Assembly (NCBI GenBank): GCA_934635225.1
Contig: CAKTYZ010000003.1
Span: 3,312-67,311 of the forward strand
Source: an uncultured Kiritimatiellota bacterium
Lineage (GTDB): Bacteria > Verrucomicrobiota > Kiritimatiellia > RFP12 > UBA1067
Reading direction: 5' to 3'
DNA: 64,000 bases
Position 1 is the stretch's first letter. Every line of letters starts with the position of its first letter. Both the position numbers and the translations under genes were made by a program. Below are positions 7,127 through 60,658 of this stretch, one piece after another. Under the pieces are notes generated by a model. The model had not been told where the DNA came from. It did no database searches and worked only from the letters and a program-made list of their open reading frames with translations.

Positions 7127-8878
7127 TTAATTGCCGGGCTGCCATTCGACGTTCGCGAAGGCATTGTCGAACGCGGCGGAAAGACCGCCGAGGTTCTCGC
7201 TACCCGCGCTCGTCGTGGAGACGGGCGTCTTCTCCTCGCCTGTGGCCTCGGCCTCAAGCGCCTTGATCTCGTCGTCCGTCATGCTCATCGCGCGAATCGA
7301 CAGGCCGATGCGGCGCTCGCCGCGATCAACCTTGACGACGCGAGCCTCGACCTCCTGACCGACGTCGAGCGCGTCCTTGACCTTCTCGATGCGCTGGTCG
7401 GAGATCTGCGAGATGTGGACGAGACCGTCCACGCCGTCTTCCAGCTCGACGAACGCGCCGAACGAGGCGATCTTCGAGACCTTGCCCTTGACGGTCGAGC
7501 CGACAGGGAACTTCTGGGCGATTTCGTCCCACGGATCCTGCATCGCCGCCTTGAGGCTGAGCGAAATGCGCTGCTCCTTGGCGTTGACGTCGAGAACGAC
7601 CGCCTCGACCTCCTGCCCCTTCTGCAGACATTCCGACGGGTGGTTGATCTTGCGCGTCCAGCTCATGTCGCTGACGTGGATCATGCCGTCGATGCCCTCC
7701 TCGAGCTCGACAAACGCGCCGTACGCCGTGAAGTTGCGGACCTTGCCCTTGACCTTCGAGCCGACCGGATAGCGCTCCTGAACCGTGTCCCACGGATTGT
7801 CCTGGGTCTGACGGATGCCAAGGGCGATCTTCTGGTTCTCGACATCAACCGAAAGGACGACGACCTGAACCTCGTCACCGACGGAAAGCATGTCGGACGC
7901 ACGCGCGACGCGCTTCGTCCAGCTGAACTCGGAGATGTGGACGAGACCCTCGATGCCGGGGGCGATCTCGACGAACGCACCGTAGGCGGCGAGGTTGACG
8001 ACCTTGCCCGAAACGCGCGAACCGACCGGGAACTGCTCCTGGATCGTGTCCCACGGATTCGCCGTCGTCTGCTTGAGGCCAAGCGAGATGCGCTCGCGGT
8101 CGCGGTCCACGTCGAGGACCATGACGTCAAGCTCCTGACCGACCTTGAGAACTTCGCTCGGGTGCTTGACGCGACCCCAGCTCATGTCGGTGATGTGGAG
8201 GAGGCCGTCGATGCCGTCAAGGTCAATGAACGCGCCGAAATCGGTGATGTTCTTCACGCGGCCCTTGCGGACTTCGCCCTTCTGGAGGCTCGCGAGCAGC
8301 TCGGCCTTCTTCTCGGCCATCGTGCCCTCGATGAGTTCACGGCGCGAGACGATGAGGTTGCGGCGCTCGTTGGAAATCTTGATGACCTTGAACTCGTAGG
8401 TCTGGCCCACGTAAGGTTCGAGATCGCGAACCGGCGTGACCTCGACCTGGGAACCGGGAAGGAACGCCTCGACATCGTCGATCTGGACGAGGAGACCGCC
8501 ACGGACGGCGCTCTTGATCGTGCCGGTGACCACGCAGCCCTCGACGTAGCGCTCAAGGATCTTCTCCCAGCGAATCTTGTCATCCGCACGCTTCTTCGAG
8601 ATCTCGACCATGCCCGTCTTGTCATCTTCAAGCTTGACGAGCATGACGGTGACCTTGTCGCCGACCTTGACGTCGGCACCCTCGCCGAACTCGTCGAGAC
8701 CGACCACGCCGACCGACTTGTAGCCGATGTCGACGAAAACATCATCACCCTTGATTGCGCTGACGGTACCCTCAATGAGGCTGCCGCCCTTGTACTTGGA
8801 ATCCTGACCCGCCTGGGTAAGGACATCAGCCATCGCTGCAGACTTCGCCGCAGGAGGCGTAGGCTTTCTAATCGCCAT
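7127..8878 (-). CDS. rpsA: 30S ribosomal protein S1 (six S1 domains)
   Basis: Repeated S1 motifs (GxV..I...GAFV.L..GIDGLLHIS..SW). The true start may be the internal MADVLTQ at ~8833. Confidence 0.93.
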   Translation of the reverse strand: MAIRKPTPPAAKSAAMADVLTQAGQDSKYKGGSLIEGTVSAIKGDDVFVDIGYKSVGVVGLDEFGEGADVKVGDKVTVMLVKLEDDKTGMVEISKKRADDKIRWEKILERYVEGCVVTGTIKSAVRGGLLVQIDDVEAFLPGSQVEVTPVRDLEPYVGQTYEFKVIKISNERRNLIVSRRELIEGTMAEKKAELLASLQKGEVRKGRVKNITDFGAFIDLDGIDGLLHITDMSWGRVKHPSEVLKVGQELDVMVLDVDRDRERISLGLKQTTANPWDTIQEQFPVGSRVSGKVVNLAAYGAFVEIAPGIEGLVHISEFSWTKRVARASDMLSVGDEVQVVVLSVDVENQKIALGIRQTQDNPWDTVQERYPVGSKVKGKVRNFTAYGAFVELEEGIDGMIHVSDMSWTRKINHPSECLQKGQEVEAVVLDVNAKEQRISLSLKAAMQDPWDEIAQKFPVGSTVKGKVSKIASFGAFVELEDGVDGLVHISQISDQRIEKVKDALDVGQEVEARVVKVDRGERRIGLSIRAMSMTDDEIKALEAEATGEEKTPVSTTSAGSENLGGLSAAFDNAFANVEWQPGN

Positions 8879-9043: not shown

Positions 9044-9055
9044 GGGGGGGGGGGG
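9044..9055. repeat. Homopolymeric G12 tract (plus strand), intergenic between the esterase 3' end and the rpsA promoter
   Basis: ccaGGGGGGGGGGGGcaacg read directly from the sequence. Confidence 0.9.
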
Positions 9056-16996: not shown

Positions 16997-17010
16997 GGGG
17001 GGGGGGGGGG
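16997..17010. repeat. Homopolymeric G14 tract (poly-C on the coding strand) in the 425-nt intergenic region upstream of the GH2-like gene
   Basis: agagcGGGGGGGGGGGGGGtattgg read directly from the sequence. Confidence 0.9.
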
Positions 17011-29059: not shown

Positions 29060-32000
29060 CTAAGGCAGCTCCAGCCACGCGCGCGGAACCGTCTTCGGCG
29101 GCTTCGTCCGCCAGTCCGGCTCGTCGCGACCGCATTGCGGCCACCAGCGCAGGACGTTCGGTCGTCCGTCCCGCCGCAGGAGGCCCGTCACGTCAACCGC
29201 CTCCATCGTCGGCGGCACCTGAAGCATCACGCCGTTGAGAAGAAGGTAGTTCATCTTCGCTTCCGAGGCCAGAAAGACGCGTCCGCCCGTCGCAGGCGTC
29301 GCGAAAGCCGTGCGGACGCAGCCGGCAAGGCCGGGCGCGAAGTCCTTCAGCGGCGCCGTCTCCGTCGGCTGCGGACGCGCCTCGGCGTAGAAGACGCCGT
29401 GGACGCCGCTCGGCAGATACCGCCGCGCGCCGGCCGGCAGCCGCCCGTCAATCGCGACTTCAAGCGTCACCTCGCCCGCGTCGGGAAGCGCCGCGCGAAA
29501 GGACAGGTTGTCCGTGCGCGGAACGGCCACGCCACCGACCTTCACCGTCGCACGCGGATTCAGCCCCGTCACGTAGCCCTGCGACGCGAACTTCAGCATG
29601 ACGCGACGGCCTTTCCAGGCGGAAGGAATCGCGACGCGCCTCACGAACGTCGCGGACGCGGCCGGATCGTCCAGCCCCATCGTCACATACGATCCGAGCG
29701 TCACGGCGCGACCGCTCTCGACGTGCGTCCACCCCCCCTGCAGCGGCAGGAAGCGTCCCTCGGCGGCGGTGGCTACCGCTGGCTTCGGCGCCGGCGACAC
29801 GGGGTCGAGCGCATACCAACGCCGCGCGAGGGACTTCAGCCAGTAGAGCGGCGCAAACCCGGCGTCCTCGCGAAGCGCCGCGTAGACGCGCGACTCGAAT
29901 GGCTCCAGCGGGACGTCCGTCAGCGTCAGGCGGTTTTCCGCGTCCTGCGCGAACGGACGCTCGGGATGGCCCTCGGCGGACAGTTCGACAAGACGGCCGA
30001 CCCGGCCCGAGACATGGAAGCGCGGCGAGGCCGAGACGCTGTTCGTGCCGCCCATCAGCGCCAGCAGACAGAGGTCGTAGAGGCCGTTCTTTGAGCGCCA
30101 GACCTCGGCAAAGCAGTCGCGCATTCCCTTGAGCTGGGCGCCGCCCGACGTGCGCGGCACGCCCAGGCGATCGAGCAGGTCTCCGAGCGCGGGGACCTGC
30201 GCGGGGTCCTCGAAGTTGAACTTGCGCCCGTCGTCGCGCGTGCGCCACCACGCGCCGCTCCACAGGCAGACAAGCCGCCCCTTCCCGATGGCAAACGTGC
30301 GGCAGTTGACGGGATCCGTCCCGCCGTGCAGGACGGCTTGCGCCGGGAGACCAAGCGCGGCGAACAGCGGCCAGACGTTCCGCTTCAGGTGCGTGTGTGT
30401 CCCCGTGTGCTCGTTGGCGATGAACGTTCCGCCCGCCCGGACGAAGCGCGCGACGGCCTCGGCCTCCTCAGGCGTCAGGATCGTCGTCGCGGCGTCCATG
30501 ATGAACTTCACGCGCGTCCACGGCCGGTCGGCCACCAGGTCTGAGGGGTCGATCAGCCCCGGCACGCGCCCTGTCGCCTGAAGGACGCCACGGGACGGAT
30601 CGAGCCGCCACGGGTTCGGGTCGCGCAGGCGCGAGGCGTTCCGGATCGAGCGCATCACGCAGATGTCGAATTCGTCGCGGTCGTGCTTGCCGAGGCAGTC
30701 GAGCCACGCCCGGTGGCTCTCGATCCACGCGCCCTTGCCGTTCGCGCGGAACATGTCGGGGTCGAACAGCAGGTTCACCGCGTCGTTGCCGAGCATCAGG
30801 TACTGCGTGAACATCTGGCGCAGACGCGTGACGTCCGGCGGCACGCCGCCGTTCTCGCAGGAGACGGGGTCGCCGCGCGTCTTCCAGTAGCGCGAACACC
30901 AGGGCGCCCAGCAGGCCTGCGTCTGCCCGGTGTCGTGCTGGTAGCCGCCGTAGCGGCGCAGGATGTCGAAGCTCAGGTCGCCGATCGCCGTCTGGCACAT
31001 CATGAACTGGGGCCGCCCGGCGGGATCGCCGGCCCGGTTGGCCCGCAGACGGCGTGCGTCATACGCGATGACTCTCTTCGCGGCCGTCTCGGAAAGCGCA
31101 AAGAACGCGCGATTCTTCCGCTCGTCGTCGCTCGGATAGGCGAAGCGCCCGTCCGCGCCGAGAAAGGCATAGTACGAGACCGGCGCCCGAAGGCCCTTGA
31201 GCGCAATCTCGTTCGTGCCGACGCGGAGAAGCCCCGCGAGATCATAGCAGATGTCAAGGTCGCCCGTCAGCGGCACGCGGCGCGTGAGGTCCTTCGCGGC
31301 GCGACCGTTCACGGTCACCTCGCCGACTTCCGAAATCCCTCCGTGCCAGTTGCCGCAGGAGAGGTGCAGGTAGCGCGCCTTGCCGAGGTCGCCCGCGAGA
31401 TCGAACGTGCGCGTCAGCGTGAAGCCGTCCTCCTTGGAGGCGTAGGCGAGCAGGACCGGATCTCCCGCATCGACCGGCTGAGGCGGATTCGTCCCGTCGT
31501 CCAGCGTCCACGTGCCGCGCAGGTCGACCGAGACGCCCGGCTTCCAGCCGACGATCTCGCGCATCGTGACGATGTCCTCGTCGCCGACAAAGCCCGGCAG
31601 GCTGGCCGCCTGGCCCGACCCCTTCTCGACCGAGCCGAAATGGGCGATGAAATGGTCGTCCCTCGCGTAGTGACGGGCGCACGCCTGGTTGTCGTAGTCG
31701 ATCAAGTCCGCGATCTTCGGCATCGGCCAGTCGCTGCCGTGCGCGGCATACTTGAAGTAGTAAAGGCTCGTTGGCCCGATCGCGCCGTCCTTCCCCGTCG
31801 CGTACGGAAGCGGGATCTCGTTCCAGAACCAGGCGGGATTCTCCGCGTGCGCCATGAGCGGATAGTCGAGATAGCCGACGCCAAGCCTCTTCGCGTACGC
31901 GGCGATCGCGTCGCCGAGCGCGTGGTTCCAGACGCCGGGCGCAACCCAGGCGGGGGCGCCATAATTGGCCCCGAAGAGGCCGAAGCCCTGCCGTGCGCTC

Positions 32001-32494
32001 CATTCGACGCCCTCGACGAAGTTCGTGGGGAGATGGCCCCAGCCGCCCTGCCCCATGACGACCGGACGGTTGTCGAAGCGGTCGAACCAGAGCGGATAGG
32101 CGTTCGTCACGGCGGGCGAGAAGCCGTCCGGCAGCGCCGGCGCGCCCTTCCGCGAGAAGACCGCCGCCGCGCGGCAGCCGCGATGCCCGACGGCGAAGAG
32201 ACCCGCGTCGTCACCGAAGCGCGAGATGTCCGTCAGGAACTTGGAAGCCGCCATCCGCGCCTGTTCGGGCGTCTCGCAGTCCAGAAGCGTCGTGACCGAG
32301 CCGTCCGGCGCGGCCAAGGCCTCGGCCGAGACCTTGCCGAGCAGCCGCAAGTCAGCCTCGACCGTCTGCCGGGCGGACGACACGGAGACCGCCAGCGCAA
32401 GACCGAATAGGACAGCGAACTTTTGCTGTTTTGCGAAGGTACGGGAGGGACGCGCTTGTCGCGTCCGAGGTCTTGCAAGTCCTTCCATCATCAT
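29060..32494 (-). CDS. Giant secreted GH42-like glycosidase paralog 3
   Basis: N-terminal signal-like segment. It shares GGTFIANEHTG, DLRGTW and FMMCQTAIGD... blocks with paralogs 1 and 2, and has a weaker copy of the C-terminal domain. 1144 aa. Confidence 0.5.
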   Translation of the reverse strand: MMMEGLARPRTRQARPSRTFAKQQKFAVLFGLALAVSVSSARQTVEADLRLLGKVSAEALAAPDGSVTTLLDCETPEQARMAASKFLTDISRFGDDAGLFAVGHRGCRAAAVFSRKGAPALPDGFSPAVTNAYPLWFDRFDNRPVVMGQGGWGHLPTNFVEGVEWSARQGFGLFGANYGAPAWVAPGVWNHALGDAIAAYAKRLGVGYLDYPLMAHAENPAWFWNEIPLPYATGKDGAIGPTSLYYFKYAAHGSDWPMPKIADLIDYDNQACARHYARDDHFIAHFGSVEKGSGQAASLPGFVGDEDIVTMREIVGWKPGVSVDLRGTWTLDDGTNPPQPVDAGDPVLLAYASKEDGFTLTRTFDLAGDLGKARYLHLSCGNWHGGISEVGEVTVNGRAAKDLTRRVPLTGDLDICYDLAGLLRVGTNEIALKGLRAPVSYYAFLGADGRFAYPSDDERKNRAFFALSETAAKRVIAYDARRLRANRAGDPAGRPQFMMCQTAIGDLSFDILRRYGGYQHDTGQTQACWAPWCSRYWKTRGDPVSCENGGVPPDVTRLRQMFTQYLMLGNDAVNLLFDPDMFRANGKGAWIESHRAWLDCLGKHDRDEFDICVMRSIRNASRLRDPNPWRLDPSRGVLQATGRVPGLIDPSDLVADRPWTRVKFIMDAATTILTPEEAEAVARFVRAGGTFIANEHTGTHTHLKRNVWPLFAALGLPAQAVLHGGTDPVNCRTFAIGKGRLVCLWSGAWWRTRDDGRKFNFEDPAQVPALGDLLDRLGVPRTSGGAQLKGMRDCFAEVWRSKNGLYDLCLLALMGGTNSVSASPRFHVSGRVGRLVELSAEGHPERPFAQDAENRLTLTDVPLEPFESRVYAALREDAGFAPLYWLKSLARRWYALDPVSPAPKPAVATAAEGRFLPLQGGWTHVESGRAVTLGSYVTMGLDDPAASATFVRRVAIPSAWKGRRVMLKFASQGYVTGLNPRATVKVGGVAVPRTDNLSFRAALPDAGEVTLEVAIDGRLPAGARRYLPSGVHGVFYAEARPQPTETAPLKDFAPGLAGCVRTAFATPATGGRVFLASEAKMNYLLLNGVMLQVPPTMEAVDVTGLLRRDGRPNVLRWWPQCGRDEPDWRTKPPKTVPRAWLELP

Positions 32495-32502
32495 CTCCGT
32501 AC

Positions 32503-34632
32503 TTATCTCAGGATCATCAGGAACGCTTCGCGCGGCACGCGGAGGCTGACCGTCCGCCGGTCGTCCGAGAGCGTGACCCGCGCGCGGGAGGCGTGTCGGC
32601 GCGCGGCGTCCTGGATCCTTTCCAGCGTCTTCTGCGAAATGCGGATGCGCCAGGTGTCGTTTCCGCCGGAATAGCGGAAAAGCGTCGTCTTCACGCCCGT
32701 CCGGCGCACGGCCGAGAAATCGAAGTCGAAGGCCGTGTCATCGCACAAGTGGAGCGCCTGGTTGGACGACTCGACAGGCGCGGTCGCGTAACCGCCCTCC
32801 GGGACCGCGAACGCGAACGTGCACCGGTTCGTGAAGTCGCCGCTGTTGCCGCCCGTGAGCATCAGCTTCGCTCTCGGCCCGAAGAACGAGAAGCGCGAGC
32901 CGCCATCCGTCTCCGAATCGTTCTGGTAATTGGGAAGAAGCGCGTTCGAGACGTGCAGCGTGCCGTTTGAGAGAACAAGTTCAGAATCCAGACCCGACAG
33001 CCGGACGATGGAGCAGGAGACCGATGAGTCCGTGCCGACCCACAGGCGGTTGCCGGCATTCCCCGATGAGCCGATCTCAATCCGGCTCGTCGCATTCGTG
33101 AAGGAACAGCCGTCCAGCCTGACCCAGTTGTTCGAGGCGCGCACGTCCTCGCGCCCAATCAGGATGTCTCCCGACACCTTGAGCGAGGCTCCGTCCGTCA
33201 CCTCGACATGGTTTCCTCGCGATCCCATGTGTCCGACGACAAGGGCGGCGCCCGACCCCGACCCAACCGTCACAACGGCATCGCGTCCGCGCACGACGAG
33301 GGCATTGTCAAAGCTCGGATAGAGCGCACCGCACCTAATGCGATTGTCACACTGAAGCGTGCCGCCCTCCAGGACCTCAAAGACATTTGAGGCCACGAGG
33401 CTCGTCAGGTAGAGCGGCATCTCCCTGTCGTCCGGATGACGCGCCGCCACGAACACGTTCGTCGCCGCAAGCGTCGCCCCGCCATCGACCGTGACGCGGT
33501 TCCAGAGCGACGTCACGCAGCTGTCGCCATATCCCTTGGCCTGGCCGCCCGCCGAGATCGTGTCCACGAAGGACACCGAATTGCTCGTGAAGTGAATCCG
33601 ATTGAAGAGGCCGTTCTGGCCGGCGGTCAGCGGTCGGTCAAAGCCCGAGTAGAAGTTGGAGAACGTCGTCCCCTCGCCGGCGACATACAGGAGATTCGAA
33701 TGCGAATAGCCGTCGCCCACGGCGAGAAGGATGTGGCCGCCCGCGGCATACGCGCCGTCCACGCCGCCCGCAAGGAACCGGGCGCCGCCGACCACGTCCA
33801 TGCGGTTGCCGTGGTTGGCGGATCCGTTCCCGCAACAGCCGATGTAGAACTGCTCCTGGGTGCCGTTCGGGCACATCGAAAGCGTCGCGTTCGAGACGCA
33901 CAGATACGCAGCGCCGCCATCGCGGTAGGCACTGAGGCCGCCGACGCCGAGGTAGCTCACGTTGGAGACGACCGCGCCGTCCGTGACGTACGCCTGCGAC
34001 CGAAAGCCCTGTCCGCCGACAAGAAGCTCGCTTTTGTTCGCGTCAAGCGACGACCCCTCGCCGCGGATGAAGACGCGGCAGTCGTTGCCGCGGCTGTGGA
34101 GACGACCGCGCATCGAGCCGCCGTCCGCAATCGTCAAATGACGCGTGCCGCCATCCTGGAAGTTCAGGTTGCCGACGAAGCGACCGCCGTTTTCAATGGA
34201 CATCGTGCAGCGCCGATAGGCGTTCCAGAACGTCACCTCCAGCGGATTGCCGTTCGTGTCCTCAAACGCGACCGTGCCGTTGCGGATGACGTTCGTGGCG
34301 TTGTTGTGGTCATGGTTGCTGTAGGGCTTCCGGAACGTCAGCGTGTGCCCGCCGAGGTCGAACGTTCGCCGACCGGCATTGCCCGCAAACCACCACGTGC
34401 CGGGGAAGTCGAGGTCGGCCGTCAGCGTCAGCGTGTAATCCGCCGACGGCTGCGCCTTGAAGCCCATCGCCTCGGACGCCTGCGTCGGACGCATCCCGCC
34501 CTCCCAGTTCGCGTCCGCCGACAGGTCTGTCGAGGCGACCCCCGTCCACCAGACGACCGTCGGATCACCCGCCAGCCCCGACACGGCGCCCAGCGCAACG
34601 CATCCGAAAAGAAGGAGAGCCGAAAGGTTCAT
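32503..34632 (-). CDS. Secreted beta-helix repeat protein (paralog of 10798-12858)
   Basis: Signal peptide MNLSALLLFGCVALGAVSGLAG, followed by repetitive GG/VSN/TL beta-strand repeats. The ATG at 34632 is the likely start, although the ORF track extends to a TTG at 34656 through a G11 tract. Confidence 0.55.
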   Translation of the reverse strand: MNLSALLLFGCVALGAVSGLAGDPTVVWWTGVASTDLSADANWEGGMRPTQASEAMGFKAQPSADYTLTLTADLDFPGTWWFAGNAGRRTFDLGGHTLTFRKPYSNHDHNNATNVIRNGTVAFEDTNGNPLEVTFWNAYRRCTMSIENGGRFVGNLNFQDGGTRHLTIADGGSMRGRLHSRGNDCRVFIRGEGSSLDANKSELLVGGQGFRSQAYVTDGAVVSNVSYLGVGGLSAYRDGGAAYLCVSNATLSMCPNGTQEQFYIGCCGNGSANHGNRMDVVGGARFLAGGVDGAYAAGGHILLAVGDGYSHSNLLYVAGEGTTFSNFYSGFDRPLTAGQNGLFNRIHFTSNSVSFVDTISAGGQAKGYGDSCVTSLWNRVTVDGGATLAATNVFVAARHPDDREMPLYLTSLVASNVFEVLEGGTLQCDNRIRCGALYPSFDNALVVRGRDAVVTVGSGSGAALVVGHMGSRGNHVEVTDGASLKVSGDILIGREDVRASNNWVRLDGCSFTNATSRIEIGSSGNAGNRLWVGTDSSVSCSIVRLSGLDSELVLSNGTLHVSNALLPNYQNDSETDGGSRFSFFGPRAKLMLTGGNSGDFTNRCTFAFAVPEGGYATAPVESSNQALHLCDDTAFDFDFSAVRRTGVKTTLFRYSGGNDTWRIRISQKTLERIQDAARRHASRARVTLSDDRRTVSLRVPREAFLMILR

Positions 34633-34633
34633 A

Positions 34634-34644
34634 CCCCCCCCCCC
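34634..34644. repeat. Homopolymeric C11 tract (G11 on the coding strand) ending 1 nt upstream of the beta-helix gene ATG, in the RBS position
   Basis: The minus strand reads aatataGGGGGGGGGGGtATGaacctt. Confidence 0.9.
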
Positions 34645-34751
34645 TATATTTAGCAAGAACAGCCTTGCGACAAACCGTTTTAATCATTTTTCTCATGTTC
34701 TTCTCTCCTTTTGCTTTCCTTTGTTTCTGCAAGCCGTTGTTGACGACACCG

Positions 34752-39068: not shown

Positions 39069-39290
39069 TCAGGGACCTACATTGCCGTCATCCGCCGCAG
39101 CTTGCTGCAGCTCCTTCCGGCAGAACCTCTTGGAAACGCCCATCGCGCAACGCCCCCGCGCCGGAACGGGCATGCAGCTGCGGTTCTCCACACGCTTCAG
39201 TCCCGACATGATCAGGACGGCGTATGCCCCGGTGCAGGTAAAGGCGCGGTCTTCCGCAATACGAACAAGGATATCGTTGTCATCGGCCAT
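39069..39290 (-). pseudogene. Truncated ASCH-domain gene copy (N-terminal 57 aa homologous to the 42711-43202 gene, then divergent)
   Basis: The stretch AFTCTGAYAVLIMSGLKRVENRSCMPVPARGRCAMGVSKRFCR is identical to the full ASCH gene. The GxKxxExR ASCH motif is present but the rest of the domain is missing. Confidence 0.6.
39118..39246. repeat. 129-bp direct repeat, copy A (128/129 identical to 43033-43161)
   Basis: Read directly from the sequence; there is a single mismatch (ctg/cta). Confidence 0.9.
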
Positions 39291-42711: not shown

Positions 42712-43202
42712 CAGTCAGCTCCTAATTGCGCATTTACTGCACCAGAAACATCTTCCGGCAGCCGCCACATTCCGACATTGCCGCGACAGGGAATGGGAGC
42801 AGGCAACTTGCGAATGTTCGAGAGTAGCCACCAGTAGCGGTAGCCTTCATTCCAAAACTGCGCCTGAACCCGCCAAGGTTCTTCTTCGGGTTCTGCATCT
42901 ATCGCCTGGTAGTCCATCACCGCGACGATGTGGCCCGGCCAACAGCTCGCCTCTTCCCATGTCGGGACGATGGCATCCACCCTGTCGCCGTTTAATCGCC
43001 GCAACCACGCTTTGATGCCGTCATACTCGGCGCGGCAGAACCTCTTGGAAACGCCCATCGCGCAACGCCCCCGCGCCGGAACGGGCATGCAGCTACGGTT
43101 CTCCACACGCTTCAGTCCCGACATGATCAGGACGGCGTATGCCCCGGTGCAGGTAAAGGCGTTGACGATTGGCATAAGTTCAATTAAGAAGATACCCTGC
43201 AA
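42711..43202 (-). CDS. ASCH-domain protein (full length, 163 aa), translationally coupled to the downstream Fic gene
   Basis: The GLKRVENR segment fits the ASCH GxKxxExR motif, and the protein has the expected ~110-aa beta-barrel length plus an extension. Confidence 0.6.
   Translation of the reverse strand: MQGIFLIELMPIVNAFTCTGAYAVLIMSGLKRVENRSCMPVPARGRCAMGVSKRFCRAEYDGIKAWLRRLNGDRVDAIVPTWEEASCWPGHIVAVMDYQAIDAEPEEEPWRVQAQFWNEGYRYWWLLSNIRKLPAPIPCRGNVGMWRLPEDVSGAVNAQLGAD
43033..43161. repeat. 129-bp direct repeat, copy B (inside the 5' part of the ASCH gene)
   Basis: Read directly from the sequence; matches 39118-39246. Confidence 0.9.
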
Positions 43203-58826: not shown

Positions 58827-60293
58827 TCAGGACTTTTCTCCGGCGGCGGCAGAAGCGGCGCGGCGGACTTCGGCGGCCACCGCCTCATTCACGCCCGCCA
58901 CGGACGCGATCTCGCCGATCTCTGCCCGCGCGACGCCGTAAATCGACCGAAACGTCCGCAGAAGCTTCATCTTCTTCACTTCGCCAATGCCAGGGACCTC
59001 GTCCAGCACCGATTCGCGGATATGCCGCTCGCGCAGATTGCGGTGATAGGCAATGGCAAAGCGATGCGCCTCGTCCCGCAGACGCGTCAACACGAACAGG
59101 CCCTGCGAATCGCGCGGCAGAAGAAGATTCTCGCGTCCATCGTCGAAGACGACTTCCTCCTGCCGCTCCGCAAGGCCCACGGTCGGCGGGACCCGAAAGG
59201 AAGGATCGTCCGCCGCCAGTTCCGCAAGCGCCGCGCGCGCCGCGCGCAGCTGCGTGATGCCGCCATCGCACACAAACAAGTCGGGCTGCGGCAGGTTCGT
59301 CCCGTCCGTGAACCGTCGACGCACGACTTCTGCCATCGAACGCGGGTCGTCCGCACCGACAACCGTCTTGATGCGGAAGTGCCGATAATAGCGACCGTCG
59401 GGCAGGCCGTCGCGCGCGACGACGAGCGACGCGACCGAATCCGTGCCGAAGAGATTGGAGATGTCCACGCATTCAATGGTGCGCGGAGGCGCGTCAAGCC
59501 CCAGCGCGTCGGCCAGTTCCGAAAGCCCCCGTTCGGCCTCCTCCTCGCGCAGGTGCGGCGAACGACGGATGAAATGCGCCTTCGTCATCTCTTTCAGCGC
59601 GAAGACCGTATCTCGCCAGCGGGCCGCCGTCTCGTAGTCCCCCTTCGCCGCCGCGTCGCGCATGCGCGCCTCGACCTCTGTCAGGACGTCCGGACGTCGG
59701 CCTTCCAGGAACGCGCACGCCTCGTCGAAACGCGCCCGATACGCCTCGCGCGTGATCTTGCCGAGACAGGGGGCCGCACAGCGGCGAATGACATTCGCGA
59801 GACAGTGACGATGCGCGGCCTCGTCAGGAACCAGGCACTCGCATTCGCGAATGCCGTAATGCTTCTCGACAAAGTCCTTCGCCGCACGCACGACAGGCGC
59901 CGACGGAAACGGTCCGAAGTAACGCGCCCCGTCATCCCGCACGATCCGACAGCAGGTGAAGCGCGGCCAATCGGCCGACGGGTCCGCGCGCAAGGCCAGA
60001 TAGCGCTTGTCATCCCGCATGAGGATGTTGAAATGCGGCTTGTACCTCTTGATGAGCGACGCTTCGGTCAGAAGCGACTCGGCCTCGTTCTTCACCGTCA
60101 TGAACTCGAAGTCGTAGACCGTCTCGACCATCGAGCGGACCTTCGGCGGATGCTTCGCCCCCGCGCGGAAGTAGGACGTGACGCGCCGTCGCAGGTTCTT
60201 GGCCTTGCCGACGTAGATGATGACGCCCCGGCGATCTCGCATGAGATAACAGCCGGGGCGGTTGGGGACGGACTTCAGCCGTTCTCGAATCAA
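58827..60293 (-). CDS. uvrC: Excinuclease ABC subunit C
   Basis: GIY-YIG motif CYLMRDRRGVIIYVGKAKNLRRRVTSYF, plus a C-terminal HhH region. The start is probably a non-ATG codon (TTG at ~60293 or CTG at ~60302) just after the tatA stop. The long Arg-rich N-terminus in the ORF track was rejected. Confidence 0.85.
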   Translation of the reverse strand: MIRERLKSVPNRPGCYLMRDRRGVIIYVGKAKNLRRRVTSYFRAGAKHPPKVRSMVETVYDFEFMTVKNEAESLLTEASLIKRYKPHFNILMRDDKRYLALRADPSADWPRFTCCRIVRDDGARYFGPFPSAPVVRAAKDFVEKHYGIRECECLVPDEAAHRHCLANVIRRCAAPCLGKITREAYRARFDEACAFLEGRRPDVLTEVEARMRDAAAKGDYETAARWRDTVFALKEMTKAHFIRRSPHLREEEAERGLSELADALGLDAPPRTIECVDISNLFGTDSVASLVVARDGLPDGRYYRHFRIKTVVGADDPRSMAEVVRRRFTDGTNLPQPDLFVCDGGITQLRAARAALAELAADDPSFRVPPTVGLAERQEEVVFDDGRENLLLPRDSQGLFVLTRLRDEAHRFAIAYHRNLRERHIRESVLDEVPGIGEVKKMKLLRTFRSIYGVARAEIGEIASVAGVNEAVAAEVRRAASAAAGEKS

Positions 60294-60298
60294 GTCCG

Positions 60299-60502
60299 TC
60301 AGGCAAGCTCCTTCGCGGGCGTCTTCTCGGCCTCTTCGGCCGCCTCCGCGTCCGCCAGCTCCTTCTCGCCTTCCTGAAGGCCCTTCTTGAATTCGCCCTT
60401 CGCCTTGCCGATCGAACGCGCGAGCTCGGGAATCTTCTTCGCGCCGAACAGCACGGCGACAATCAGCAGGACAATAAGGATTTGCATCAAACCTGGTCTC
60501 AT
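60299..60502 (-). CDS. tatA: Twin-arginine translocase TatA/E family protein
   Basis: MRPGLMQILIVLLIVAVLFGAKKIPELARSIGKAKGEFKKG...; AAGGAG RBS 6 nt upstream. Confidence 0.88.
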   Translation of the reverse strand: MRPGLMQILIVLLIVAVLFGAKKIPELARSIGKAKGEFKKGLQEGEKELADAEAAEEAEKTPAKELA

Positions 60503-60616
60503 GTTTTTCTCCTTCTGGATCGAAATGTTGGGTGATAGGATACCGAATTTTTCGGCAAAAAGCAAGTGCGCCCGCCTTCCGGCCGATCCAAATGCGGTGC
60601 CGTGACGCGCCCCCGT

Positions 60617-60646
60617 TGACAGTCCGGTCTGCCTTTTGGTATACTT
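60617..60646 (+). promoter_or_regulatory. Consensus sigma-70 promoter TTGACA-18-TATACT driving tRNA-Val
   Basis: cccgTTGACAgtccggtctgccttttggTATACTttcacccaattcg, ending ~13 nt before the tRNA 5' end. Confidence 0.65.
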
Positions 60647-60658
60647 TCACCCAATTCG

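Follow-up and report, generated by a model that had tools for sequence, protein, structure and literature searches.

Slipped-strand phase variation is a textbook process for Neisseria, Campylobacter, Helicobacter, and Bordetella. Campylobacter jejuni and Helicobacter pylori, whose genomes are AT-rich, have poly-G/C contingency genes with tracts that are mostly located within genes of the glycosyltransferase type. Promoter poly-G/C tracts are found at porA and opc of Neisseria meningitidis, at fim of Bordetella, and at tpr of Treponema pallidum. Translational control by upstream open reading frames (uORFs), with coupling through ATGA overlaps, is another known type of regulation in bacteria. 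The pilC tract of Neisseria is reportedly contained within the part of the gene that encodes the signal peptide. The Kiritimatiellota are a poorly known phylum of glycan-degrading gut bacteria that is prominent in non-industrialized populations. The Neisseria pilC tract is listed as genic, with a length of G9-20 "within the reading frame" (PMC5953494, citing Jonsson et al. 1991). A full-text literature search returned no paper that links the Kiritimatiellota with phase variation.

In this report, we describe a G11 tract at the start of a gene for a 709-residue protein in an uncultured Kiritimatiellota bacterium. The whole stretch of 64,000 nucleotides that was analyzed is called the window. 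The closest precedent is pilC of N. gonorrhoeae and N. meningitidis, where, as in this locus, a run of about 10 Gs is located near the 5′ end of an open reading frame for an exported protein and a single G alters the frame. The two systems differ in that a second ATG is found directly behind the tract in the window, so that an "off" frame may instead be a "low" state. They also differ in that two lengths are found here rather than the broad range in Neisseria, and in that the tract appears to have come with a recent insertion. The host belongs to an unrelated phylum, has a genome of 64% GC, and lives as a commensal glycan degrader. We consider the chances slightly better than even that the tract functions as a two-state translational phase or volume switch that operates by slipped-strand mispairing. 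The positions of the features and the alleles of the start region are collected in Table 1.

Table 1. Features of the window (position 1 is its first nucleotide), alleles of the start region, and carriers of the two tract lengths
Feature	Position	Strand	Description
Ribosomal protein S1 gene (rpsA)	7127-8878	-	
G12 tract (C12 when read along the flanking genes)	9044-9055	+	intergenic, about 166-178 nt upstream of rpsA
G14 tract (C14 when read along the flanking genes)	16997-17010	+	intergenic, between the GH92 stop and a 1310-aa GH2-like gene
1142-aa gene	29060-32488	-	14 nt after the stop of the 709-aa ORF; then GH2/GH42-like and GH92 genes on the same strand
709-aa ORF	32503-34632	-	ATG 1 nt 3′ of the tract; N-terminus MNLSALLLFGCVALGAVSGLAG, followed by DP...; predicted signal peptide and β-solenoid body
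uORF, out of frame, 43 codons (G11 state)	34565-34696	-	upstream ATG to TGA (34567-34565); overlaps the first 66 nt of the 709-aa ORF
67-nt segment	34603-34669	-	missing from allele A; linker, G-tract, second ATG, and 27 nt encoding NLSALLLFG
40-nt segment with the tract	34622-34661	-	cleanly absent in L010, which is otherwise 100% identical over 5.2 kb; absence puts the gene back in frame with the upstream ATG
G11 homopolymer (C11 on the + strand)	34634-34644	-	slippage-prone; G10 in 3 related assemblies, G11 in 11
Upstream (ancestral) ATG	34694-34696	-	start of alleles A and B and of all close homologues
AAGGAG Shine-Dalgarno sequence	34705-34710	-	8 nt 5′ of the upstream ATG; the same in every allele examined
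Allele A, 708 aa			upstream ATG, MRKMIETVCCVVLG..., no tract; most cluster members, L013, L014, L017, L032, and outgroup clusters at 85-90% identity
Allele B, 717 aa			upstream ATG, without the 40 nt that include the tract; L010
Allele C, 709 or 730 aa			contains 67 nt (34603-34669) that allele A does not have; window and relatives
Allele D, called as 744 aa			group II intron directly after the upstream ATG; L015, L016, L033-L041
G11 carriers			window and 11 assemblies (L001-L004, L006, L008, L009, L011, L012, L042/L044, L043)
G10 carriers			3 assemblies: L007 = L018 = L047 (ERZ4561606), L050 (ERZ28614899), L053 (Logan ERR7746748)

Read directly, the + strand from 34630 to 34650 is CAT-A-CCCCCCCCCCC-TATATT, with C11 as the middle block. 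The coding strand is aatata-G11-t-ATG, with the G-run at 34644 to 34634 and the ATG at 34632 to 34630. The initial annotation, which was made from the letters of the window, had placed the run against the start codon and in the Shine-Dalgarno position. Both placements were confirmed: a single nucleotide separates the run from the ATG at 34632, and the run is the only Shine-Dalgarno-like element for that ATG. A homopolymer census of the 64-kb window returned three G/C runs longer than 7 nt (the G12, G14, and C11 runs of Table 1), and apart from these outliers the longest C run is 7 nt and the longest G run is 5 nt. From a first-order Markov model, about 0.045 G/C runs of at least 11 nt are expected in 64 kb. 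The tract is real and nonrandom and belongs to a small group of similar tracts in this segment of the genome. It is uninterrupted and long enough to slip, for which about 8 nt or more of G or C is required.

The 709-aa reading frame is preceded by a second translational start, 61 nt 5′ of the tract, with its first nucleotide at 34696. The arrangement AAGGAG-N8-ATG is 100% conserved across all of the alleles examined, and the Shine-Dalgarno sequences of other genes in the window are of the AGGAG type with spacings of 7-10 nt. Alleles without the tract begin at this upstream ATG with MRKMIETVCC..., and all of the more distant homologues have Sec-type signal peptides of ~21-23 residues with K/R n-regions. 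Because the conserved Shine-Dalgarno-ATG pair is used by the tract-less alleles and by the homologues, the tract is located inside a translated region. The ATG at 34696 was overlooked in the initial annotation, which had proposed a TTG as the upstream start. An in-frame TTG is indeed present at 34656 and encodes LLNIGGGGM, but the relevant upstream start is the ATG at 34696. The TTG has no Shine-Dalgarno sequence, none of the homologues starts there, and the 717-aa product that would begin at TTG 34656 is absent from the called-gene records.

The reading frames were computed after rebuilding the region with 8-15 Gs. With G10 or G13, the upstream ATG and the gene share a frame; the product begins with MRKMIKTVCRKAVLAKYRGGGMNLSALLLFGC... 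and has 730 residues at G10. With G8, G11, or G14, a uORF of 42-44 codons runs from the upstream ATG, and with G9, G12, or G15, the TGA of the uORF overlaps the second ATG as ATGA. Being located 3′ of the tract, the second ATG keeps the frame of the gene body at all tract lengths. A change in tract length shifts the gene body relative to the frame read from the strong upstream start, and the loss of one G converts a 43-codon uORF (G11) into a 730-aa fusion (G10). Slippage had previously been proposed to act either through the reading frame or through the spacing of the ribosome binding site. The former is borne out at the level of the sequence, where the tract sets the frame between the ATG at 34696 and the gene body. 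The latter is unlikely as the mechanism of a switch. The sequence GGGGG can pair with the anti-Shine-Dalgarno core CCUCC using one G-U pair, and since a run of 11 Gs already supplies every register from 1 to 7 nt from the ATG, the gain or loss of one G hardly shifts this geometry. The arrangement is similar to that of coupled bacterial uORFs in that a strongly initiated short frame overlaps the start of the main reading frame, and in that the G12 register would end with ATGA. It differs in that the relationship between the two frames is set by a mutable repeat rather than being fixed.

In the switch model, slippage would move the gene back and forth between two states, one that has a strong start and one that has a weak start or is nearly off. 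With G10 (or G13), ribosomes that initiate at the strong site would read through the tract, and the resulting 730-aa precursor would have a leader that is long and positively charged. With G11, the same ribosomes would make a 43-residue out-of-frame peptide that stops 66 nt into the gene. The protein would then be made only from the second ATG, with the G-run as a surrogate Shine-Dalgarno sequence, as a 709-aa precursor with an uncharged n-region. With G12, which was not observed, the uORF would end in the ATGA overlap. The second ATG at 34632 arrived with the 67-nt segment that distinguishes this lineage. We infer that the two states differ in output, which of them is the "high" state, that the difference matters, and that cells of one population switch often and in both directions; G11 is taken to be the state that is favored in vivo.

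The lengths of the tract in related strains, a comparison that the initial annotation had called for, were found to vary, with both G10 and G11 present in otherwise identical DNA. An exact look-up with the 709-aa protein favors the nonfused states and returns G11 only, and look-ups with the upstream and downstream neighbor genes were therefore added. The exact-protein look-ups placed the locus in human-gut metagenomes (records named Hadza, Nepal, and others). With unique sequence on both sides, the tract was found in 14 other assemblies, 11 with G11 and 3 with G10, and no other length was seen among these 14 and the window. The G10 contigs align to the window with 0 mismatches and 1 gap over 5.1-6.25 kb, and their 730-aa product is recorded as P0004. 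The length thus differs among otherwise identical or near-identical strains, with the independence of the three G10 records being uncertain: they may not represent independent events, given their identical backgrounds and a possible overlap of samples between Logan and ENA. A lineage that has diverged by ~3% (L042-L044), with 5 SNPs within ~100 nt of the tract, still has G11. Between the window and L042, both with G11, the reading frame is intact with a dS of 0.068 and a dN/dS of 0.30, and the gene is therefore under purifying selection in the G11 lineages and is not a decaying pseudogene. A scan of JGI metagenomes for relatives returned only one irrelevant fragment of 43% identity, and a look-up with window positions 58827-60650 returned no match.

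Three contigs (L005, L011, and L012) stop at the tract or within 7 nt of it, and these ends fit either length heterogeneity or read errors in the homopolymer. In L009 (ERZ4560009, 3.5x coverage), G11 is accompanied by a 5-nt deletion (CTTTC) after ATGAAC that puts both starts out of frame, and this sequence is either a null allele or an error of a low-coverage assembly.

A poly-G artefact of two-color sequencing chemistry had been named with the initial annotation as one result that would overturn it, and an artefact of assembly was considered together with it. These data sets do carry poly-G artefacts elsewhere, as judged from scaffold-gap runs of G19-22, N10, and C21 in some assemblies of the organism, and contigs break at the tracts. 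Two assemblies have such runs within the 10 kb to the left of the window. In L045 (15334-15389) the sequence is G22-TAA-N10-C21 and in L046 (11681-11699) it is G19-N10, both at the same point inside a gene of 863/845 aa, ~3.3 kb past the left edge of the window; these runs are either two-color extensions at contig ends or an unassemblable G/C hairpin. Artefacts of this type would predict G-then-C runs of arbitrary length at contig ends. The G11 run, in contrast, is internal, and at least four pipelines yielded it at the same length and between unique flanks, in 11 other assemblies. The record names of the tract-bearing assemblies (NODE_, k141/k119/k127, Logan, and MERR22 scaffolds) look like those of SPAdes, MEGAHIT, Logan, and scaffolded assemblies. 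G11 is carried by the public sequencing runs ERR7738263, ERR7746113, ERR7745783, and SRR1612018, the last of which presumably dates from about 2014, judging by its accession number. An artefact is effectively refuted by the agreement of these 11 assemblies, and we assign it almost no probability.

The two other long tracts of the window provide internal controls. In contigs that encode an identical S1 protein, the tract near rpsA has lengths of 12, 16, 15, and 14, and one contig has T plus C10; in L045, the probable source scaffold, the length is 12. One contig begins right at this tract, which is hypervariable and upstream of a housekeeping gene. The G14 tract has a length of 14 in the window and of 12, 12, 13, 14, and 14 in contigs with base-identical flanks. 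Two Logan contigs end inside the latter tract, and MERR22 scaffolds have N10 gaps beside it. Thus, the intergenic tracts drift freely (10-16 and 12-14), which indicates that G/C tracts as long as these are mutable in the organism itself, or at any rate in the assemblies made from it. The number of distinct lengths is 5 of 5 and 3 of 6 for the two intergenic tracts, compared to two adjacent lengths in 15 assemblies for the G11 tract (Fisher p about 0.03-0.04). The lower variability of the G11 tract may be due in part to its shorter length (11 versus 12-16). The restriction to two lengths that specify different frames is as expected from selection on the frame.

A similar situation is found in C. 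jejuni and H. pylori, where several G/C tracts of at least 9 nt occur per region, surface- and glycan-related genes are involved, and the lengths differ between near-identical isolates. However, two of the three tracts described here are intergenic, and one of these is upstream of the housekeeping gene rpsA. Both intergenic tracts begin exactly 191 nt after the preceding stop codon, and a repeat shared by the 190 nt before each of them was considered; the sequences are unrelated by eye and the distance varies between strains, and we regard the spacing as a coincidence. Scans for σ70 promoters and for terminators around all three tracts found none on the relevant strand.

The same data are less easily accommodated by a fixed, nonswitching ribosome binding site or leader that was left by the insertion, with G11 under selection and G10 a rare neutral or slightly deleterious mutant, or a miscall. 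This explanation fits the retention of G11 at 3% divergence despite 5 SNPs within ~100 nt, with one alternative length seen, and homopolymer miscalls are plausible at 3-9x coverage. However, G10 is found in three assemblies that were made by different pipelines (NODE_, MERR22 scaffold, and Logan). If the run served as a Shine-Dalgarno sequence alone, G10 and G12 would be about equivalent and the length would be expected to drift, as is found for the other two tracts. The restriction to two frame-distinct lengths argues that the frame matters, and we consider a fixed element improbable. The switch model must nonetheless allow for the dominance of G11 (12 of 15 sequences, including the window, with G10 in the other 3) and for its persistence at 3% divergence, which would also be found for a fixed leader or Shine-Dalgarno element with G10 as a tolerated mutant. 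Both states may also give adequate protein, with no phenotypic switch. Structures predicted for the RNA around the tract do not exceed those of shuffled sequences in stability. The G-run can pair with a CU-rich stretch 3′ of the second ATG at -18 kcal/mol, which is no better than shuffles (z of -1.5, and 0.35 in a longer context).

The start region occurs in four forms (alleles A-D, Table 1). From sequence comparison, the 67-nt segment of allele C is a lineage-specific insertion in the region that encodes the signal peptide. Two independent restorations of the frame were found on identical or near-identical backgrounds, namely, the loss of 40 nt in L010 and the loss of 67 nt in L013. The start region is a compact natural experiment in which deletion, G10, G11, and intron-bearing forms are all available in public metagenomes. 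The called length of the same gene varies with the allele (708, 709, 717, 730, or 744 aa), and a real switch would bear on the reading of gene calls in metagenome-assembled genomes.

These alleles bear on a stricter version of the frameshift, in which the upstream ATG is the sole real start, G11 is OFF (a truncated peptide of 43 aa, possibly with Rho-dependent polarity on the hydrolase genes downstream), G10 is ON, and the ATG after the tract is irrelevant. It is favored by the perfect conservation of the upstream Shine-Dalgarno sequence and ATG and by the charged n-regions of all of the homologues. Three different events (G10, the 40-nt loss, and the 67-nt loss) restore the frame, and G12, which would allow ATGA coupling, was never seen among the 15 sequences. 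The supposed OFF state, however, is the consensus (12 of 15 sequences) and is maintained across a dS of 0.068, and yet the frame of 709 codons is intact with a dN/dS of 0.30. In addition, the N-terminus MNLSALLLFGC... is usable, as judged from the spliced intron allele described below, and the G-run is a credible Shine-Dalgarno sequence at a suitable spacing. We regard a strict ON/OFF frameshift as unlikely.

A promoter-spacer switch of the porA/fim type was also considered. The tract resembles those of porA/opc, fim, and tpr in being located just upstream of a coding sequence, and G11 happens to give a 17-nt spacing between -35- and -10-like hexamers: TTGCTA (TTGCCA in L042), 17 nt (AATATA plus G11), and TATGAA. 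The hexamers match the consensus at 4-5 of 6 and 4 of 6 positions. Unlike the known promoter tracts, the putative -10 element overlaps the start codon, so that the mRNA would be without a start codon or signal peptide. The second hexamer has no final T, and a consensus scan calls no promoter on the coding strand. The preceding gene ends 55 nt before this one, apparently within a common operon. The tract was not found to lie between functional -35 and -10 elements, and a promoter switch is highly improbable.

Allele D, for which ERZ27286952 is an example of a Hadza sample, contains a group II intron. Nine contigs (L033-L041) that encode a 380-aa variant of the upstream gene end with ...AAAGGAGAGAAGAACATG/GTGCGCCAAGCG..., where the slash denotes the exon-intron junction. 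At the 5′ junction, ...GAACATG/GTGCGCC, the start codon is followed directly by GUGCG, the canonical 5′ end of group II introns; the junction corresponds to the boundary between 34694 and 34693 of the window. The ~120 nt that follow match the Rfam family group-II-D1D4-4 (RF02003; 32.9 bits, E of 5e-6), with a score below the gathering score. The 3′ end of the intron is found at positions 1-138 of L015 and 1-74 of L016, with a match to RF00029 of 52.5 bits against a gathering score of 40 (E of 1e-9). This match ends exactly at ...CTCTACTCTAC/AACCTTTCGGCTCTCC (CTCTAC/AACCTTTCGG). The 5′ GUGYG end, the domain V/VI consensus, the sense orientation, and intact flanking exons are thus all found for allele D; the window has no intron match. 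A search of the window with Rfam returned only a tRNA at the gathering threshold and noise around the tract, with no intron remnant or known leader RNA. From synteny, the two junctions are inferred to belong to one copy of the intron, and L015 and L035 are from the same sample. The contigs break inside the intron, which appears to be multicopy. A scan of viral contigs for the 5′ end of the intron returned nothing. Gene callers read through the 3′ end of the intron and produce a spurious 744-aa protein that begins with MTNAILRGKPDAGNPHVRFDEGEVAS....

When spliced, allele D reads AAGGAG-N8-ATG-AACCTTTCG (ATG-AAC-CTT-TCG...) and encodes MNLSALLLFGC..., which is the N-terminus of the 709-aa protein of the window. 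From this identity we conclude that a precursor that starts with MNLS... is a functional form. The junction of the window after the G-run, ATG/AACCTTTC, is identical to the ligated-exon junction of allele D. A CU-rich stretch, CUCUCCUUCUUUUC, is located within the 27 nt after the second ATG (34603-34629 on the - strand; 139-165 of L015) and is complementary to the Shine-Dalgarno sequence AAGGAGAG and to the G-run. The hairpin between the Shine-Dalgarno sequence and the CU-rich stretch is significantly stable when allele D is spliced (z of -3.9), and no other fold is significant.

It could be imagined that the tract is mechanistically linked to the mobility of the group II intron, with the 67-nt insert being a retro-copied or degenerate homing-site cassette and the activity of the intron having created both the tract and the alternative start. 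We consider this a long shot. As speculation, GAGAAGAACAUG and G10-UAUG might be the pairing partners of EBS1 and EBS2, and, equally speculatively, the purine run G10-UAUG could use G-U wobble to bind the exon-binding sequences that pair with the 5′ exon GAGAGAAGAACAUG. On the G-strand, the sequence 3′ of the G14 tract, TATTGGAACC, resembles the sequence TATGAACC that follows the G11 tract, and the other poly-G tracts in the genome could mark similar events. The coincidence of intron and tract is the only element that could raise the interest of the locus.

The initial annotation had described the gene as that of a surface β-helix protein. The signal peptide and the β-solenoid are predicted; the surface location is not, and secretion itself is a prediction. 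The 709-aa protein has no match in Pfam, and its family is small (15 clusters). An AF2 model built on the family homologues has a pLDDT of 87 and a pTM of 0.87 and is an all-β solenoid of short regular strands, with a low-confidence N-terminal helix at residues 1-21. The best matches in the PDB from Foldseek are nearly all β-helix proteins (EspC, Ag43, TibA, pertactin, a PL6 lyase, and tailspikes) and are weak, with a best E of 6.6e-3 and TM values of ≤0.28. A secreted β-helix protein is, on the basis of the model, a reasonable assignment for the 709-aa product. The C-terminus of the family (window 32503-32540, - strand) has a conserved ...LSLRVPxxGxLxIxR in all members; it is unlike PEP-CTERM by eye and might be a sorting signal.

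The gene is part of a glycan-degradation cluster on the - strand that contains a GntR/LacI-type regulator, a GH29 fucosidase, a 385-aa protein, the 709-aa gene, the 1142-aa protein, GH2/GH42-like giants, a GH92 enzyme, and a sialate-O-acetylesterase-like protein, with rpsA further along. The 709-aa gene and the downstream hydrolase genes form a probable operon, and a polar effect of the tract on the latter, which had been suggested previously, would be a possible consequence. If the switch model is correct, gut commensals would diversify the output of a secreted β-helix protein, and perhaps of the hydrolases behind it, within the host, with a bearing on the persistence of strains and on the evasion of IgA or phage.

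The GC content of the window is 62-72% over most of its length. It falls to 47-53% in an island at ~39.2-46.8 kb that encodes a Fic-domain protein, a PDZ protein, an NgoFVII-type restriction endonuclease, and a C5 cytosine methylase. A direct repeat of 129 nt, with copies at 39118-39246 and 43033-43161 that are 99% identical, was found within this island, which looks like an integrated mobile or defense island.
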